Shown here piece by piece: positions 4,107-25,952 of a stretch of 64,000 bases of DNA (positions within the stretch are counted from its first letter, which is position 1; each line of letters starts with the position of its first letter). The stretch comes from Escherichia phage T2: the sequence record NC_054931.1. One strand, 5' to 3'. The notes below the pieces were generated by a model. The model saw nothing but the letters and a program-made list of their open reading frames with translations. It did not search any database and was not told the origin of the DNA. The position numbers were made by a program, and so were the translations under genes.

Positions 4107-4916
4107 ATGCTTAAAGAACAACTGATTGCCGAAGCGCAGAAAATTGATGCTTCCGTTGCTCTTGATAGTATTTTCGAATCAGTTAATATTTCTCCGGAAG
4201 CAAAAGAAACTTTCGGCACTGTATTCGAAGCTACCGTCAAGCAGCACGCCGTTAAATTAGCTGAATCTCATATCGCTAAAATTGCTGAAAAAGCAGAAGA
4301 AGAAGTAGAAAAAAATAAAGAAGAAGCCGAAGAAAAAGCTGAGAAGAAAATCGCTGAGCAAGCTTCTAAATTCATTGACCATCTTGCAAAAGAATGGCTC
4401 GCTGAAAATAAATTAGCAGTTGATAAAGGCATCAAAGCCGAACTGTTTGAATCCATGCTTGGTGGATTAAAAGAGCTCTTTGTTGAACACAACGTTGTTG
4501 TTCCAGAAGAATCAGTTGATATTGTAGCTGAAATGGAAGAAGAGCTGCAAGAACATAAAGAAGAATCAGCTCGTCTGTTCGAAGAACTCAATATGCGCGA
4601 CGCATATATCAATTATGTGCAGCGTGAAGTGGCATTGAGCGAAAGTACTAAAGATCTGACTGAGTCTCAAAAAGAAAAAGTCTCTGCTCTGGTCGAAGGT
4701 ATGGATTATTCAGATGCATTCTCAAGTAAATTGAGTGCCATCGTAGAAATGGTGAAGAAGTCTAATAAAGATGAAAGCACTATTACTGATGGTATAAATA
4801 CTCCTGATACTGAAGCAGCCGGACTGAATTTCGTCACTGAAGCTGTAGAAGATAAAGCTGCACATGGTGCAGAAGATATTGTAAGTGTATATGCGAAAGT
4901 CGCATCTCGTTTCTAA
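4107..4916 (+). CDS. 22: prohead core scaffold protein
   Basis: 269 aa ORF, acidic coiled-coil-like sequence as T4 gp22. Confidence 0.9.
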   Translation: MLKEQLIAEAQKIDASVALDSIFESVNISPEAKETFGTVFEATVKQHAVKLAESHIAKIAEKAEEEVEKNKEEAEEKAEKKIAEQASKFIDHLAKEWLAENKLAVDKGIKAELFESMLGGLKELFVEHNVVVPEESVDIVAEMEEELQEHKEESARLFEELNMRDAYINYVQREVALSESTKDLTESQKEKVSALVEGMDYSDAFSSKLSAIVEMVKKSNKDESTITDGINTPDTEAAGLNFVTEAVEDKAAHGAEDIVSVYAKVASRF

Positions 4917-4934
4917 TTTTAAAGGTTAACACAA

Positions 4935-6500
4935 ATGACTATCAAAACTAAAGCTGAACTTTTGAACAAATGGAAGCCATTACTGGAAGGTGAAGGTTTA
5001 CCGGAAATTGCTAATAGCAAACAAGCGATTATCGCTAAAATCTTTGAAAACCAGGAAAAAGATTTCCAGACAGCTCCGGAATATAAAGACGAAAAAATTG
5101 CTCAGGCATTCGGTTCTTTCTTAACAGAAGCTGAAATCGGTGGTGACCACGGTTACAATGCTACCAACATCGCTGCAGGTCAGACTTCTGGCGCAGTAAC
5201 TCAGATTGGCCCAGCTGTTATGGGTATGGTACGTCGTGCTATTCCTAACCTGATTGCTTTCGATATTTGTGGTGTTCAGCCGATGAACAGCCCGACTGGC
5301 CAGGTATTCGCACTGCGCGCAGTATACGGTAAAGACCCGGTCGCTTCTGGTGCTAAAGAAGCATTCCACCCAATGTATGGTCCAGATGCAATGTTCTCTG
5401 GTCAGGGTGCTGCTAAGAAATTCGCTGCTTTGAAAGCAAGTGATACTCTTGAAGTCGGAACTATTTACACTCACTTCTTCCAGGAAACTGGTACTGTATA
5501 TCTGCAAGCTACAGAAGTTAAACAAATCGATGTCGGTGCTAGTGATGCAGCTAAATTAGATGCTGAAATTAAGAAACAAATGGAAGCTGGTGTACTGGTA
5601 GAAATCGCTGAAGGTATGGCTACTTCTATCGCTGAACTTCAGGAAGGTTTCAATGGTTCTACCGATAACCCATGGAATGAAATGGGCTTCCGTATCGATA
5701 AGCAAGTTATCGAAGCTAAATCTCGCCAGCTGAAAGCTGCTTACTCTATTGAATTAGCACAAGACCTCCGCGCTGTTCACGGTATGGATGCTGATGCTGA
5801 ACTGTCTGGTATTCTGGCTACAGAAATTATGCTGGAAATCAACCGTGAAGTTGTTGATTGGATTAACTACTCAGCTCAGGTTGGTAAATCTGGTATGACC
5901 CTGACTCCAGGTTCTAAAGCTGGTGTATTTGACTTCCAGGACCCAATCGATATTCGTGGTGCTCGCTGGGCGGGTGAATCCTTTAAAGCTCTGTTGTTCC
6001 AGATTGACAAAGAAGCAGTTGAAATTGCTCGTCAGACCGGTCGTGGTGAAGGTAACTTCATTATCGCTTCCCGTAACGTAGTTAACGTTCTGGCTTCAGT
6101 TGATACCGGCATTTCTTATGCTGCACAGGGTCTGGCTACCGGCTTCAACACTGATACTACCAAGTCAGTATTTGCTGGTGTTCTGGGTGGTAAATACCGC
6201 GTATATATCGACCAGTATGCTAAACAGGATTATTTCACTGTAGGTTATAAAGGTCCGAACGAAATGGATGCTGGTATTTACTATGCTCCATATGTAGCTC
6301 TGACTCCGCTGCGTGGTTCCGATCCGAAGAACTTCCAACCGGTAATGGGATTCAAAACTCGTTACGGTATCGGTATCAACCCATTTGCAGAATCCGCTGC
6401 TCAGGCTCCGGCTTCTCGCATCCAGAGCGGTATGCCTTCTATTCTGAATAGCCTTGGTAAAAACGCTTACTTTAGACGTGTATATGTTAAAGGTATCTAA
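4935..6500 (+). CDS. 23: major capsid protein
   Basis: 521 aa ORF; N-terminus MTIKTKAELLNKWKPLLEGEGLPEIANSKQ recognisable as T4 gp23. Confidence 0.98.
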   Translation: MTIKTKAELLNKWKPLLEGEGLPEIANSKQAIIAKIFENQEKDFQTAPEYKDEKIAQAFGSFLTEAEIGGDHGYNATNIAAGQTSGAVTQIGPAVMGMVRRAIPNLIAFDICGVQPMNSPTGQVFALRAVYGKDPVASGAKEAFHPMYGPDAMFSGQGAAKKFAALKASDTLEVGTIYTHFFQETGTVYLQATEVKQIDVGASDAAKLDAEIKKQMEAGVLVEIAEGMATSIAELQEGFNGSTDNPWNEMGFRIDKQVIEAKSRQLKAAYSIELAQDLRAVHGMDADAELSGILATEIMLEINREVVDWINYSAQVGKSGMTLTPGSKAGVFDFQDPIDIRGARWAGESFKALLFQIDKEAVEIARQTGRGEGNFIIASRNVVNVLASVDTGISYAAQGLATGFNTDTTKSVFAGVLGGKYRVYIDQYAKQDYFTVGYKGPNEMDAGIYYAPYVALTPLRGSDPKNFQPVMGFKTRYGIGINPFAESAAQAPASRIQSGMPSILNSLGKNAYFRRVYVKGI

Positions 6501-21367: not shown

Positions 21368-21400
21368 AATGGGGACCTTTCGGTCCCCATATTTTTATTT
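21368..21400 (+). terminator. rho-independent terminator after gene 54
   Basis: GGGGACC-TTTC-GGTCCCC hairpin followed by ATATTTTTATTT. Confidence 0.65.
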
Positions 21401-21685
21401 ACGGAATGAAATGAAAGCAGAAACTGAAGCAACTAAACTGTCTTCAATATAAACTTCAATTTTTACCGGAGCTTCTGACTCAAATTTACCTGTTACTACA
21501 CCCTGGAAAATGCTTTCAGTCTGTTCTGGCTTTGAAAAATTTTCAGAAGGAAAAATTCCGAACTTTTTATCTGTTCCAAAAATTTTAATAAATTCATCGT
21601 AAACCGCTTCGTTAAAAGCATTATCAGCAGGAATAACGCCTTCAACTACAAGTTCTTGACCTAAAAAGCGCAAAGAAGATTTCAT
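21395..21685 (-). CDS. hypothetical protein (T4 alt.-3 position)
   Basis: 96 aa ORF with GAGGAA RBS and an early-type promoter upstream. Confidence 0.6.
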   Translation of the reverse strand: MKSSLRFLGQELVVEGVIPADNAFNEAVYDEFIKIFGTDKKFGIFPSENFSKPEQTESIFQGVVTGKFESEAPVKIEVYIEDSLVASVSAFISFRK

Positions 21686-21689
21686 TTTG

Positions 21690-21745
21690 TGTTCCTCATG
21701 TTATGTCAGTAAGATTATTATAACACAACATAAGGAACTTGTAAA
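21690..21745 (-). promoter_or_regulatory. early promoter and conserved leader upstream of ORF 21395..21685
   Basis: GTTTACA, 17 nt, TATAAT, same leader as the alc copy. Confidence 0.5.
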
Positions 21746-23803
21746 CTACATTTTGAACTTTTTAGACATTCCGTTGATGTTAACCAAAGAAGCTAATATT
21801 TGAGAAACTTCGTTTTCCTCTTCTTTTGATTCTTCTACAAGGAATTGATTAAATCCAGCCATTGGACGAACTTCACCAGTTTCCATTAAATGGTCTCCAT
21901 CATATACTGATTCTTCTAATTGTTCAGAAGGAGGAACGATTGTACCTTCGATTAGATACTTGTTATAAGCAGTTTCTTTCATAAAGTACGTACTTACTTT
22001 ATTAATCTTCAGTAAAATTCCACGCGGTAGAATAACTTCAGCTTCTGATGGAAATCCTGATAAATGACCTGGAACGATAACTTTGATTCGCTCAGCTCCT
22101 TTAATTACCATACCCACGCTAGTTTCAGCATCTTCATTAGCATATGTAGAATGACTACCCATATGCATCAAATCTTCTGCATCAACGGAACCTTCTCCTT
22201 CTCCAGAAAATACTGCACCGGAATCATCTAGAGCCATATAGTTTTTACCATGCTCGCCAAAGATATTTGGTTTAAGTGATGTCGATACGAAGTTCTTGAA
22301 ATAGAACATTTTGTTTTCAATGTTGTGACGCAAAGTTTTAAAGGTAACTTCTTGTCCGCGATAAAGCGTAGTTCCTGGAGGAAGAACTGAACCTTTAGCG
22401 AATGCAGAATCCAACGTCTCGATGTGCTTAATAGCACGTTCCATATATTCTTCACGGGTAGAATCTGGTTTACCCAAAAGGAACGAGTTCATTTCAACAT
22501 ATGAATCTGCACAATAATCTTCAATTACATCAGACTCAGCCTGAGTCAGTCCTTTTGGAGTTACTTCAGTGCTTGCATATTCATATGCCTGGGCAGCAGA
22601 TTCATTAATCAATTTATAAATGCCATTCATGACAAATTGAATAATAACTGTCTTTTCATCTGGCGTAGCTTTAGAACCTTTAACCAAATCATTGATAATT
22701 TTCTTAATAACATCAAAGCTATTAGAAATATTAATATCAGCAAGATCACTTAAAATTTTATCAGTTTTATAATCAAAGAATTCTTTATTCTTTAAATATT
22801 CTTGAGAACCTTGATATGTTATATCGCTCTGTAACTTGATAGATGGATCACGTAAACGTGCATGGGCTAATGCAATATGATTTCGGAAGTTTTCTAGTTC
22901 ATAATCGCTAGATTTAAAACGAGAAGCACTTCTCATACCACCGATAGCTCCTTTGCTGAAGTTTGAACCAATCTGAATAACGCCAGAGTTCATTGGTCCT
23001 TCTGCTTTATATACCGGAACTTTAGATTCAAACTCTTGATATTTCTTGGCAGCGAAGCTATCACCCTGAAGTGAAGCATCGACAGTAGAATATTGAGCTT
23101 GTGCTGCTAATCGACGACTAATTTTAGTTTTCTGAATAACCGCTTGGTCAGTACGTTTATCATTTTCTAAAGCAATAGAAGCAGCAACAGCGACAGCTTT
23201 AGGAACAGCATCACCTGTTTTAACATCTACATAAACATCACCGACCTTCGATTCAACTTTTGCGAATAACTCAGTTGAAATAGGAGGTACACCTGGAATG
23301 TCTTCTAAATTGGCATTTTTACGGTAAACCATAATATATGCATACTTTTTATCATAGTCCCAGATTTCCTTTAAAAGAACATATCGACCTGCTCCTTTAG
23401 TACGTACTAAACGGTCAGCAATAACTTGCATTTGACGAGCTGCGCCATTTGTTTTACTTTTTAGTACGCGGAATAAGCATGCGTCGATTTTATACTGTTT
23501 CATTGTTTGAAGAGCAGTATCAAAAACAGCATTAATGACGCCAATTGGATTTCCACCCAAGTTTCTAAGCTTAACCAGCGATAATTTCTCGTTGACACCT
23601 ATCATTACGATATGCATCATTTTATCGCCTGGCTTAACGTTTTTATTTGTATCACCACCAGAGGTGTATGTACAAAATCTAAATCCAGGAAGCACGCTTT
23701 CTTCGCCGGCTTGAATAGCAAAAATTTGTGGTATTTTATGCTTAGGATTTAAGTTAACAACCGGCGCCGAAGCGCCGTCAAATAATTCTGTAATAAGTTC
23801 CAT
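21746..23803 (-). CDS. Alt-family mono-ADP-ribosyltransferase paralog
   Basis: 685 aa ORF; N-terminus MELITELFD...NLNPK shared with the neighbouring gene; C-terminal R / STS / EAEVILPRG motifs typical of R-S-E ADP-ribosyltransferases. Confidence 0.8.
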   Translation of the reverse strand: MELITELFDGASAPVVNLNPKHKIPQIFAIQAGEESVLPGFRFCTYTSGGDTNKNVKPGDKMMHIVMIGVNEKLSLVKLRNLGGNPIGVINAVFDTALQTMKQYKIDACLFRVLKSKTNGAARQMQVIADRLVRTKGAGRYVLLKEIWDYDKKYAYIMVYRKNANLEDIPGVPPISTELFAKVESKVGDVYVDVKTGDAVPKAVAVAASIALENDKRTDQAVIQKTKISRRLAAQAQYSTVDASLQGDSFAAKKYQEFESKVPVYKAEGPMNSGVIQIGSNFSKGAIGGMRSASRFKSSDYELENFRNHIALAHARLRDPSIKLQSDITYQGSQEYLKNKEFFDYKTDKILSDLADINISNSFDVIKKIINDLVKGSKATPDEKTVIIQFVMNGIYKLINESAAQAYEYASTEVTPKGLTQAESDVIEDYCADSYVEMNSFLLGKPDSTREEYMERAIKHIETLDSAFAKGSVLPPGTTLYRGQEVTFKTLRHNIENKMFYFKNFVSTSLKPNIFGEHGKNYMALDDSGAVFSGEGEGSVDAEDLMHMGSHSTYANEDAETSVGMVIKGAERIKVIVPGHLSGFPSEAEVILPRGILLKINKVSTYFMKETAYNKYLIEGTIVPPSEQLEESVYDGDHLMETGEVRPMAGFNQFLVEESKEEENEVSQILASLVNINGMSKKFKM

Positions 23804-23806
23804 GAT

Positions 23807-25903
23807 TTATCCTTGAACGAACTTGTAAGGCATGTTTGTAATATCTATGCAAGACGCAATAATTCCGAGAGATGATTCTACTTTCTGTTTAACATTTGAT
23901 GAAACAAATGATGCAAAGTCAACTCTGTCTTCTATTTCAATATCACCTGTCATTGCAACTACTTCGCCGGTTTCCATTAAACGGTCTCCGTCATAGATTA
24001 CCGATTCGGTGAGTTCTTCTGTGGTCATAACTTCAGCTTGAATGAGTTTTGTATTATTAGACGTGGTTCCGTCATTATTAGAAGCATCAGTTATTTTATT
24101 AACTTTGACCATCAATCCGCGCGGTAGAATAACTTCAGCTTCTGTTGCTATTCCGAGACTTCCTGGATATACAACATTAACTTTATGAGCTCCATCAATT
24201 GCCCATCCTATTTGAACTTTAACGTATTCAGGATTTTCTTTATACGCTCTTATTTCGTTTGGATTAATAGTTATTCCTTCTTCATTTTTATCAACTGTTA
24301 ATTCATTGCGAGCTTCTGGTTCTAAAAGACCAATACCAGCATGTGTAATTCCAAAACGTCCAAAAATGATAGGAGTTAAAGAAGTAGATACAAAATTTCT
24401 GAAATAGAACACTTTATTTTTAACTAGCGCTTCGTATATAGGAGCAGTCATACTTTGAGCACGATAAACTGTAATGCCTTCCGGTATGCGGTCACCATTT
24501 TCAAAAGCTGAATCTAAATTATTTATAGCAGATTCAATTTCTTTTTCACTCATTACATCATATCGTTCTGGATTGTAACGACCTAAAAGAAGATTATTAA
24601 TGTCTGTATATCCTGAACCACAATACTCTCTAATACCGCGCTTTTGTGATGGTGTATATTTAGAACCATCACAAGCAATAGTAATATCAATCATTGGACC
24701 AGCACCAATTCCAGAAAAACTATAAATCATTCGTTTGAGGAATTTAGTTTTTGCTGCATTCCAGGCATTTTTAGTTATTTCTCCCCAGACTTCATCTGGC
24801 TGCCCTTTACGAGTTTTATTATGTTTATCAAGCCAATTATCTTTATATTCTTCAAAGAATTGATTGACAGCTGCCGCGTATTTCTCTAAACATTTTATTG
24901 AAGTAGTTGGTTCATTTTTAATCGCGTTAAAAATTACATCTTTAATTTTTTCAGAAACTTCATCAACCTCACTTTTTGAAAAGAATTTATAGTCATAGTG
25001 AAGTTCATTCGCAGTTCCTTCGGCAATAATTTTTGCTGCCTTTGTTTTAGAAGCTAATGAATTAATTCCAATTTTCATTTCTTCTGCTTCGGGAATTAAA
25101 GGAGCGGTAGCAGGCTTATTGAAATTAGCTGCGGTAGATTCATACTTCTGGAATAATTCACTTTCAAATCTAGAAGATTCCAATGATTGACTTTGCGCAA
25201 TTGCTCTACGGGAAATTTTAACTTTAACGATTACAGCTTGGTCAGTACGTTTATCATTTTCTTGTGCAATAGATGCTGCAATTGCCTCGTTTTTAGTTAC
25301 TTGAGCTCCAGTATCTTTATTGATATAAACATCACCGACCTTCGATTCAACTTTAGTAAAGAGCTCGGTACTAATTTCCGGAACTCCTGGAATGTCTTCT
25401 AGTGATACATTTTTGCGATGTATAAGAATATATGCATACTTTTTATCATAATCCCAGAGTTCCTTAAGAAGGACGTATCTGCCACCTGAACGACTACGGA
25501 TAAGTCTATCAGCAATAACTTGAATTTGTCGAGCTTGACCAGCAGTTTTAGACTTAAGAATACGAAGCATACAAGCATCAATTTTATACTGACGCATTGT
25601 TTGCATTGCAACAGTAAAAACTGAATTGATATAATTAATTGGGCTTGGACCAAGACCTTTTAATTTAGCAATTGAACCTTTAGCAGTTAATGTAAAAGGA
25701 ACAATATGCATCATTTTATCGCCCATTTTTAAATCGCGATTAGTATCACCTCCAGATGTATAGGTACATAAACGAAAGCCTGGTTGTTCAATTGCATCAT
25801 CAACATGAACTGAAAAAATTTGTGGTATTTTCTTCTTTGGATTTAAGTTTGTAATCGGAAGAGTAGTATCTTCGTCAAATAATTCTGTAATGAGTTCCAT
25901 CAT
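23807..25903 (-). CDS. alt: Alt mono-ADP-ribosyltransferase (packaged internal head protein in T4)
   Basis: 698 aa ORF next to ligase gene 30; ART motifs YRAQ, FVSTSL, TEAEVILPRG; N-terminal MELITE consistent with prohead-protease processing. Confidence 0.8.
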   Translation of the reverse strand: MMELITELFDEDTTLPITNLNPKKKIPQIFSVHVDDAIEQPGFRLCTYTSGGDTNRDLKMGDKMMHIVPFTLTAKGSIAKLKGLGPSPINYINSVFTVAMQTMRQYKIDACMLRILKSKTAGQARQIQVIADRLIRSRSGGRYVLLKELWDYDKKYAYILIHRKNVSLEDIPGVPEISTELFTKVESKVGDVYINKDTGAQVTKNEAIAASIAQENDKRTDQAVIVKVKISRRAIAQSQSLESSRFESELFQKYESTAANFNKPATAPLIPEAEEMKIGINSLASKTKAAKIIAEGTANELHYDYKFFSKSEVDEVSEKIKDVIFNAIKNEPTTSIKCLEKYAAAVNQFFEEYKDNWLDKHNKTRKGQPDEVWGEITKNAWNAAKTKFLKRMIYSFSGIGAGPMIDITIACDGSKYTPSQKRGIREYCGSGYTDINNLLLGRYNPERYDVMSEKEIESAINNLDSAFENGDRIPEGITVYRAQSMTAPIYEALVKNKVFYFRNFVSTSLTPIIFGRFGITHAGIGLLEPEARNELTVDKNEEGITINPNEIRAYKENPEYVKVQIGWAIDGAHKVNVVYPGSLGIATEAEVILPRGLMVKVNKITDASNNDGTTSNNTKLIQAEVMTTEELTESVIYDGDRLMETGEVVAMTGDIEIEDRVDFASFVSSNVKQKVESSLGIIASCIDITNMPYKFVQG

Positions 25904-25952
25904 ATCCTCTCTAGTGTTTATTCTATTTATAAAATTAAAGGCCCGAAGGCCT

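Follow-up and report, generated by a model that had tools for sequence, protein, structure and literature searches.

The genome of Escherichia phage T2 (NC_054931.1) encodes two adjacent genes of the Alt family of ADP-ribosyltransferases (ARTs): alt, the ortholog of the gene for the head-packaged enzyme Alt of phage T4, and a second full-length paralog named alt.-2 in RB32 nomenclature. Both lie in the stretch of 64,000 nucleotides (nt) that was analysed, referred to here as the window. Based on the evidence described below, it is proposed, with a rough probability of 0.65, that the alt/alt.-2 tandem encodes two modular ARTs carrying the R-S-ExE catalytic residues, both of which would be packaged in the phage head, trimmed by the prohead protease gp21, injected into the host and endowed with different substrate preferences. 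An earlier inspection of the letters alone (hereafter the sequence-only reading) had drawn attention to two co-oriented open reading frames (ORFs) of 685 and 698 amino acids (aa), and both were located on the minus strand with these lengths. The two genes are the following:

23807-25900, minus strand: alt, 697 aa counted from the second ATG (MELITE...), ortholog of T4 Alt.
21746-23803, minus strand: second Alt paralog (alt.-2), 685 aa, full-length and intact.

The mechanical alt ORF spans 23807-25903 on the minus strand (698 aa), as it is read from the first of two adjacent ATGs. The deposited annotations place the start at the second ATG, at position 25900, and this start is favoured because its spacing from the GAGG Shine-Dalgarno sequence is better. 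The extra in-frame ATG (25901-25903, minus strand) explains why some database proteins start with MMELITE (P0059, P0113). The pair sits between gene 30/alt.1 and alt.-3/gene 54, and the surrounding 4.9-kb region matches five T2 genome records and phage SV76 with 100% identity.

Both proteins are matched from end to end by phrog_802 (Alt-like RNA polymerase ADP-ribosyltransferase), with E-values of 5e-272 for alt and 7e-255 for the second copy (residues 1-685), and both exceed the gathering score of 23.4 of the Pfam model PF03496 (ADPrib_exo_Tox), with 129.1 bits (E 1.7e-37) for alt and 71.4 bits for the second copy. The PHROGs that hold T4 alt.-1 and alt.-2 (23015 and 15247) have the 685-aa copy as their best match, while no model of NCBIfam matched either protein. 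Along their full length the two T2 proteins share 41% identity (E 2e-161), distributed as 68% in aa 1-235, 19% in aa 236-415, 33% in the ART domain and 46% at the C-terminus. These regional values agree with the shared ends and divergent centre described in the sequence-only reading, and every motif quoted there is present. The second copy is thus divided into three main regions:

23099-23785, minus strand: N-terminal alpha/beta domain, aa 7-235, PF26846 (Tevenvirinae_ADPRT).
22559-23098, minus strand: helical middle region, aa 236-415, 19% identical to its alt counterpart.
21920-22558, minus strand: ART catalytic domain, aa 416-628, with the PF03496 match at 416-620.

T4 Alt, a head-packaged NAD+ (nicotinamide adenine dinucleotide):arginine ADP-ribosyltransferase of 682 aa present at about 40 copies per head, resembles the T2 pair in its locus, domain order, N-terminal MELITE, LxE site, R-STS-ExE residues and late promoter. 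NAD+-dependent ADP-ribosylation of the RNA polymerase alpha subunit and of other host proteins is known for T4 Alt only (PMC5512222, PMC9503650, PMC11404850). The product of T2 alt is 70% identical to T4 Alt overall, in a mosaic fashion: the N-terminal domain (residues 1-235) reaches 99% identity and the C-terminal tail 94%, the ART domain 65% and the middle region 32%. The ART domain of T2 Alt is nearer to that of the Dhakavirus Alt (82%) than to that of T4 Alt (65%). Even among orthologs, therefore, several catalytic "alleles" exist at the alt locus. The 685-aa copy is further removed from T4 Alt, sharing 41% identity overall and 34% across the ART domains, with middle regions that are unrelated (12%).

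The catalytic residues of the two proteins were positioned by alignment and, for the arginine and the ExE motif of the second copy, also by comparison with solved ARTs:

24461-24463, minus strand: alt, catalytic Arg480 (YRAQ).
24380-24388, minus strand: alt, STS motif, S505-T-S507.
24134-24142, minus strand: alt, ExE motif, E587-A-E589.
22358-22360, minus strand: second copy, catalytic Arg482 (YRGQ).
22277-22285, minus strand: second copy, STS motif, S507-T-S509.
22037-22045, minus strand: second copy, ExE motif, E587-A-E589, preceded by Phe583 in the ADP-ribosylating toxin turn-turn (ARTT) loop.

Arg482, Ser507/Ser509 and Glu587/Glu589 (second-copy numbering) are invariant in an alignment of 21 family sequences, and the ARTT loops differ, with GFPSEAE in the second copy against GIATEAE in alt. 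Searches with a single sequence against the sequences of the PDB gave no match, and the solved ARTs were reached by the family profile only. When the profile of the 21-sequence alignment was compared with solved C3/iota-like toxins including BECa, the YRG of the phage family aligned with the catalytic YRG of the toxins and the phage ExE aligned with their QxE or ExE. An AlphaFold2 model of the 685-aa protein showed a mean predicted local distance difference test (pLDDT) score of 74, with values of 80-90 across most of the ART core, and its best PDB matches in Foldseek were the arginine-specific Vis (E 1.5e-7), Certhrax, CDTa, C3, VIP2 and iota toxin, with template modelling (TM) scores of about 0.6 on the target; this structure prediction, proposed in the sequence-only reading as a check, was run on the second copy. 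Since the residues are invariant, the profile aligns with solved toxins and the model matches ARTs, the claim that both copies bear intact catalytic signatures holds, and the catalytic Glu and Arg, whose loss in one copy had been named as evidence to the contrary, are retained in both. Judged by motif and fold, the two proteins would therefore be modular arginine-type (R-S-ExE) mono-ADP-ribosyltransferases. With regard to residue numbers, a T4 Alt variant named "E577A" was reported to be catalytically dead (PMC11404850); in the T4 Alt of KJ477685 the ExE glutamates count as E574 and E576, and the published number is probably offset by one relative to this record.

The toxins C3bot/C3cer, Vis, Certhrax, CDTa, iota, VIP2 and BECa have in common with the phage pair the catalytic fold and the Arg/STS/(Q/E)xE arrangement, and the ExE form of the pair is that of the arginine-specific toxin members. 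Conversely, identity between the pair and the C3/binary toxins is below 20%, the phage enzymes contain a large variable insertion between STS and ARTT, and they are built with phage-head delivery modules whereas the toxins rely on secretion or on a B component for delivery. Closer at hand, ModA and ModB of T4 are small early proteins of about 200 aa which lack the N-terminal PF26846 domain and gp21 propeptides. They belong to the same R-S-E clade of ARTs as Alt, which comprises the Alt/VIP2 and Mod families (PMC5512222, PMC9503650), and unlike Alt they are neither packaged nor injected (PMC5512222).

The second group of signatures concerns packaging. In T4 Alt, gp21 cuts at ITE-6 and LTE-619 to produce a mature protein of 68.2 kDa (PMC5694885), and the annotation of X15811 indicates that 6 residues are removed from the N-terminus; the mass calculated from the T4 Alt sequence with both cuts is 68.2 kDa, as published. 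Both T2 proteins have MELITE at residue 1, identical to T4 Alt, so that the assignment of this motif to a gp21 cleavage context made in the sequence-only reading corresponds to the experimentally mapped ITE-6 of T4 Alt (PMC5694885). The features related to processing are listed below:

23786-23803, minus strand: predicted N-terminal propeptide of the second copy, codons 1-6 (MELITE), ending at the gp21 P1 residue Glu6.
24005-24013, minus strand: LTE-632 of alt, in a context identical to T4 Alt LTE-619.
21911-21919, minus strand: LEE-631, predicted C-terminal gp21 site of the second copy (SEQLEE, with the cut placed before SV), aligned with T4 LTE-619.
21749-21910, minus strand: predicted acidic C-terminal propeptide of the second copy, aa 632-685, isoelectric point 4.6, with low pLDDT in the model.

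In the 21-sequence alignment, Glu6 and Glu631 do not vary, and the P3 position is occupied by L, I or M. Cleavage at both sites would yield mature proteins with predicted masses of 70.0 and 69.2 kDa for the T2 pair. Taken with the divergence of the substrate-facing half, these signatures make it plausible, and well motivated by sequence, that the second product is packaged and injected and acts on different targets.

The arrangement of transcription and translation signals is compatible with this proposal:

25924-25931, minus strand: T4-type late promoter TATAAATA, 23 nt 5' of the alt start codon.
23810-23814, minus strand: AAGGA ribosome-binding site of the second copy, within the final codons of alt.

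The late-promoter function of TATAAATA was deduced from the known consensus of T4 late promoters. The motif is enriched in the window (18 observed vs 8.4 expected), and the occurrence upstream of alt comes just after a GC-rich hairpin that trails alt.1. Only 3 nt separate the alt stop codon from the ATG of the second copy, and no terminator was found between the two genes, the first strong hairpin being located beyond alt.-3. Late co-expression of both genes together with the head genes is likely because a late promoter lies upstream, the second gene follows after 3 nt with its own ribosome-binding site, and no terminator intervenes. Another exact TATAAATA occurs at 24520-24527 (minus strand), within the alt coding sequence and about 720 nt 5' of the start of the second copy, and it may act as a late promoter inside the gene or simply match by chance.

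The pair had been presented in the sequence-only reading as out of the ordinary with respect to T4, and this view has to be reversed. In a translated search, about 395 phage records were found to contain the second copy with an identity of 95% or higher, and a deletion junction of the T4 type was found in 91 records, so that the two copies are kept in about 80% of Tequatrovirus records; in about 400 other records the match covers only the portion of the junction query that lies upstream of the deletion. The two-copy state is the majority state in Tequatrovirus and T4 is a derived exception. Moreover, the pair is already annotated, as RefSeq names both genes "Alt-like RNA polymerase ADP-ribosyltransferase" in T2, T6, RB32, RB27, slur phages and others.

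The origin of the T4 state could be traced by the alignment to T4 Alt and to the alt.-2/alt.-1 ORFs that had been suggested as a check, which identifies alt as the T4 Alt ortholog and the second copy as the full-length source of the T4 remnant. T4 alt.-1/alt.-2 correspond to the initial 342 nt of the T2 second-copy gene, roughly its first 116 codons, with about 94-98% identity. An A5 run near codon 54 has lost one A, and the resulting frameshift splits the remnant into two ORFs; beyond this, the T4 sequence skips 1,699 bp and resumes at the last 20 nt of the gene, with the removal of codons ~117 to ~682. A 9-bp sequence, CTAAAAAGT, is present at both edges of the deleted segment in T2 and once in T4:

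23456-23464, minus strand: upstream copy of CTAAAAAGT, nt 340-348 of the second-copy gene.
21757-21765, minus strand: downstream copy of CTAAAAAGT, nt 2039-2047 of the second-copy gene.
L002 (T4 locus) 4550-4970: T4 remnant region, next to T4 alt at L002 2501-4549.

The 1,699-bp jump, together with the presence of CTAAAAAGT twice in T2 and once in T4, demonstrates that T4 alt.-1/alt.-2 are the deletion remnant of a full-length paralog and that this gene is dead in T4. The T4 annotation "old duplication of the first part of gene alt" is contradicted by the comparison, as the T4 ORFs derive from a truncated full-length paralog.

Selection on both genes was analysed in seven Tequatrovirus genomes (T2, RB32, phiD1, PP01, OES_C-2, FL34 and ECO4). 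Both genes are intact and constant in length in all seven. The mean number of synonymous substitutions per site (dS) was 0.19 for the second copy and 0.13 for alt, and the ratio of nonsynonymous to synonymous substitution rates (dN/dS) was 0.044 and 0.054, respectively, decreasing to 0.033 in the catalytic domain of the second copy. The second copy is thus under strong purifying selection. In Shigella phage sb4 (L009) both Alt genes are split into several ORFs, but so is gp48, and the interpretation of this case as gene decay was rejected; the fragmentation looks like an indel sequencing error rather than biology.

The same tandem occupies the same position in Dhakavirus dhabil (L013 701-4888). 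Between T2 and this phage, the ART domains of the upstream copies share 82% identity and those of the downstream copies 56%, so that the middle and ART regions group by gene position. The two catalytic lineages therefore predate the separation of Tequatrovirus and Dhakavirus. In contrast to this pattern, the N-terminal domains of T2 and Dhakavirus dhabil group by genome (68% and 64% identity within a genome vs 42-46% across genomes), indicating either concerted evolution through gene conversion or an exchange of modules onto a phage-specific domain that would fit head assembly.

That such exchanges occur is evidenced by natural hybrids. The complete isolate genomes of ECML-134, vB_EcoM_SCS4 and Yersinia phage PST contain, between alt.1 and alt.-3, a single gene of 686 aa composed of an alt-type N-terminus and an alt.-2-type body, which is their sole Alt-family gene. 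In ECML-134 and PST the sites that distinguish the paralogs show a clean single switch from alt to alt.-2, at crossover points that differ between the two phages, and a hybrid in a metagenomic contig (L006) shows a third. The coordinates of these genes are as follows:

L014 1501-3561: hybrid gene of ECML-134.
L015 1501-3561: hybrid gene of PST.
L006 6001-8055: hybrid gene of the metagenomic contig.

The longest exact match between the T2 paralogs measures 30 nt (nt 547 of alt and nt 544 of alt.-2). The hybrids result from independent unequal crossovers within the homologous N-terminal regions, with loss of the catalytic half of alt and retention of that of alt.-2. It follows from them that the N-terminal modules are interchangeable and that a phage can be viable with the catalytic module of alt.-2 as its sole Alt-family enzyme. 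The PST hybrid is annotated plainly as "alt". The explanation that chimeras in metagenomic assemblies (P0003-P0006) are artefacts of repeat collapse was dropped for the class, as three isolate genomes carry single hybrids and two of these (ECML-134 and PST) show clean crossovers at different points; individual Logan contigs with chimeras may still be artefacts.

The module that is exchanged in these hybrids was also characterized at the structural level. PF26846 was assigned from precomputed Pfam matches on 99%-identical cluster representatives and on the hybrids. The AlphaFold2 model of the N-terminal domain of the second copy (window positions 23084-23803, aa 1-240) reached a pLDDT of 84.7 and a predicted TM score of 0.83, and it had no informative neighbour in the PDB. 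In a library of viral structures, the domain strongly matched other Alt homologs, and weaker Foldseek matches (E 1e-8 to 1e-4, TM ~0.5) were obtained to large uncharacterised proteins of unrelated myophages, some of them annotated as zeta-toxin, ParB/sulfiredoxin or deaminase. These model-based matches hint at a reusable delivery module, and it is proposed that the domain may serve in capsid incorporation. The concept of an effector joined to a head-incorporation module and injected with the DNA is shared with MuF-fused/polyvalent head-packaged phage ARTs (PMC5512222, PMC9503650). The Alt pair differs from MuF-type ARTs in that it has no MuF domain and carries the Tevenvirinae-specific PF26846 instead, and its entry into the head would use the T4 scaffolding core and gp21 trimming.

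Based on the available evidence, the following sequence of events can be proposed. A single late promoter would transcribe both genes. Each protein would consist of a 6-residue propeptide, a phage-specific N-terminal domain of about 230 aa, a helical region that varies, an ART domain of the C3/Vis type and, at the C-terminal end, an acidic propeptide. The two proteins would enter the prohead core, where gp21 may trim them after Glu6 and after an LxE site located about 55-65 residues from the C-terminus, giving the products of ~70.0 and 69.2 kDa. Both would then be ejected with the DNA and ADP-ribosylate host proteins at the expense of NAD+, and their different substrate preferences would arise from the unrelated middle regions, the 33%-identical ART domains and the differing residues of the ARTT loop.

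Some observations weigh against this proposal. A search of the literature for work on the second copy gave only genome-level remarks (PMC1524935, PMC13600099), with no virion proteomics, enzymology or genetics, and a study on injected proteins of T-even phages (PMC12373910) makes no mention of Alt. The two mature products have predicted masses less than 1 kDa apart, which makes them hard to part on a gel, and unresolved gel data therefore neither support nor exclude a second packaged species. Furthermore, the catalytic part that was lost is that of alt.-2 in T4 and that of alt in ECML-134, SCS4 and PST. This reciprocal loss implies that each enzyme is individually dispensable in nature, and a partial redundancy fits it as well as distinct roles do.

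Accounting for this last point, an alternative is that both enzymes are active and packaged but largely redundant, with shared targets such as the RNA polymerase alpha subunit, the pair providing dosage or robustness. In its favour, phages of the T4 type (the 91 records) retain the alt module only while ECML-134, SCS4 and PST retain the alt.-2 module only, and both enzymes carry the ExE signature of the arginine type. It is nevertheless considered unlikely, because the middle regions and ART domains are only 19% and 33% identical and yet each lineage is conserved across genera, both genes are under strong purifying selection, and both copies persist in about 80% of Tequatrovirus records. The long-term keeping of fully redundant genes is unusual in a compact phage genome.

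Another explanation is that the second copy is active but not delivered with the DNA, having either a late intracellular role or a role mainly as a component of the core or scaffold. The literature search yielded no proteomic evidence of its packaging, late expression alone would fit a late intracellular function, and Alt itself has been considered not only as an enzyme but also as a core protein (PMC11404850). Against this stand a propeptide identical to that of Alt, the family-wide conservation of the P1 Glu at both gp21 sites, an N-terminal module that is common to Alt and naturally interchangeable with it, and the fact that in PST and ECML-134 the hybrid fills the alt slot as the only gene of the family; on balance, non-delivery seems quite improbable.

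The notion that the second copy is a decaying, functionless duplicate, which could be drawn from the frameshifted, truncated remnant of T4 and from the "hypothetical" label of the gene in some database records, is already contradicted by the selection analysis (constant length in 7/7 genomes, dN/dS 0.044, and 0.033 in the ART domain), as well as by the ~395 records at 95% identity or more, the invariant catalytic residues and the orthologous copies in another genus, and it can be given hardly any credit.

The preferred interpretation of two delivered enzymes may be extended, in a more tentative manner, to a model in which the 685-aa Alt.-2 is a second head-packaged, injected ART with its own host substrates, possibly related to takeover or anti-defence, which research centred on T4 would have overlooked owing to the deletion in T4, and PF26846 is a general adaptor for capsid delivery whose effectors are shuffled by recombination. 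The notion of a general adaptor derives from the natural alt/alt.-2 hybrids and the cross-genus pattern of modules, which suggest shuffling; taken as a whole, this extension falls somewhat short of an even chance.

Downstream of the pair, the following elements complete the locus:

21717-21745, minus strand: strong early-type sigma-70 promoter (TTTACA, 17 nt, TG-TATAAT), directly adjoining the stop codon of the second copy and driving alt.-3.
21395-21685, minus strand: alt.-3 ortholog, 96 aa, phrog_1739, the downstream neighbour, which is not an ART.
21369-21390, no assigned strand: bidirectional intrinsic terminator hairpin, closing the alt/alt.-2/alt.-3 block with respect to gene 54.

In T4, mutants with C-terminal extensions of Alt.-3 escape the CmdTAC system by blocking the degradation of the CmdA antitoxin (bioRxiv 10.1101/2024.02.24.581662). 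This preprint was rejected as a source on Alt ARTs, as its many matches to "alt" refer to alt.-3.

As a genome feature, the pair is already known and ordinary. A comparative study of 2006 attributed alt.-1 and alt.-2, along with the full-length duplicates that other T4-like phages carry, to paralogous duplication of alt (PMC1524935). In a paper of 2026, two paralogous Alt-like proteins (43% identity) were reported in 6phi13 and its closest relative SHFML-11, and functional divergence was suggested (PMC13600099), so that this inference is also in print.

The most useful outcome of the analysis is the evolutionary picture, in which the two-copy state is common, T4 derives from it by deletion and PST and ECML-134 represent reciprocal hybrids. 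Nearly all knowledge on phage-injected ADP-ribosylation comes from T4, which is shown here to be a degenerate case. A second, strongly conserved Alt-family enzyme is encoded by most close relatives of T4, T2 and T6 among them; it shares the packaging signatures of Alt and has a very different substrate-facing half. These phages offer a natural contrast of genotypes, with both enzymes in T2, Alt only in T4 and the Alt.-2 module only in PST and ECML-134. If the second enzyme is indeed injected, the toolkit with which T-even phages take over the host in the first seconds of infection would be larger than the T4 model indicates, and part of what sets T2, T4 and T6 apart in host takeover or in their sensitivity to host defences could be traced to this second enzyme.

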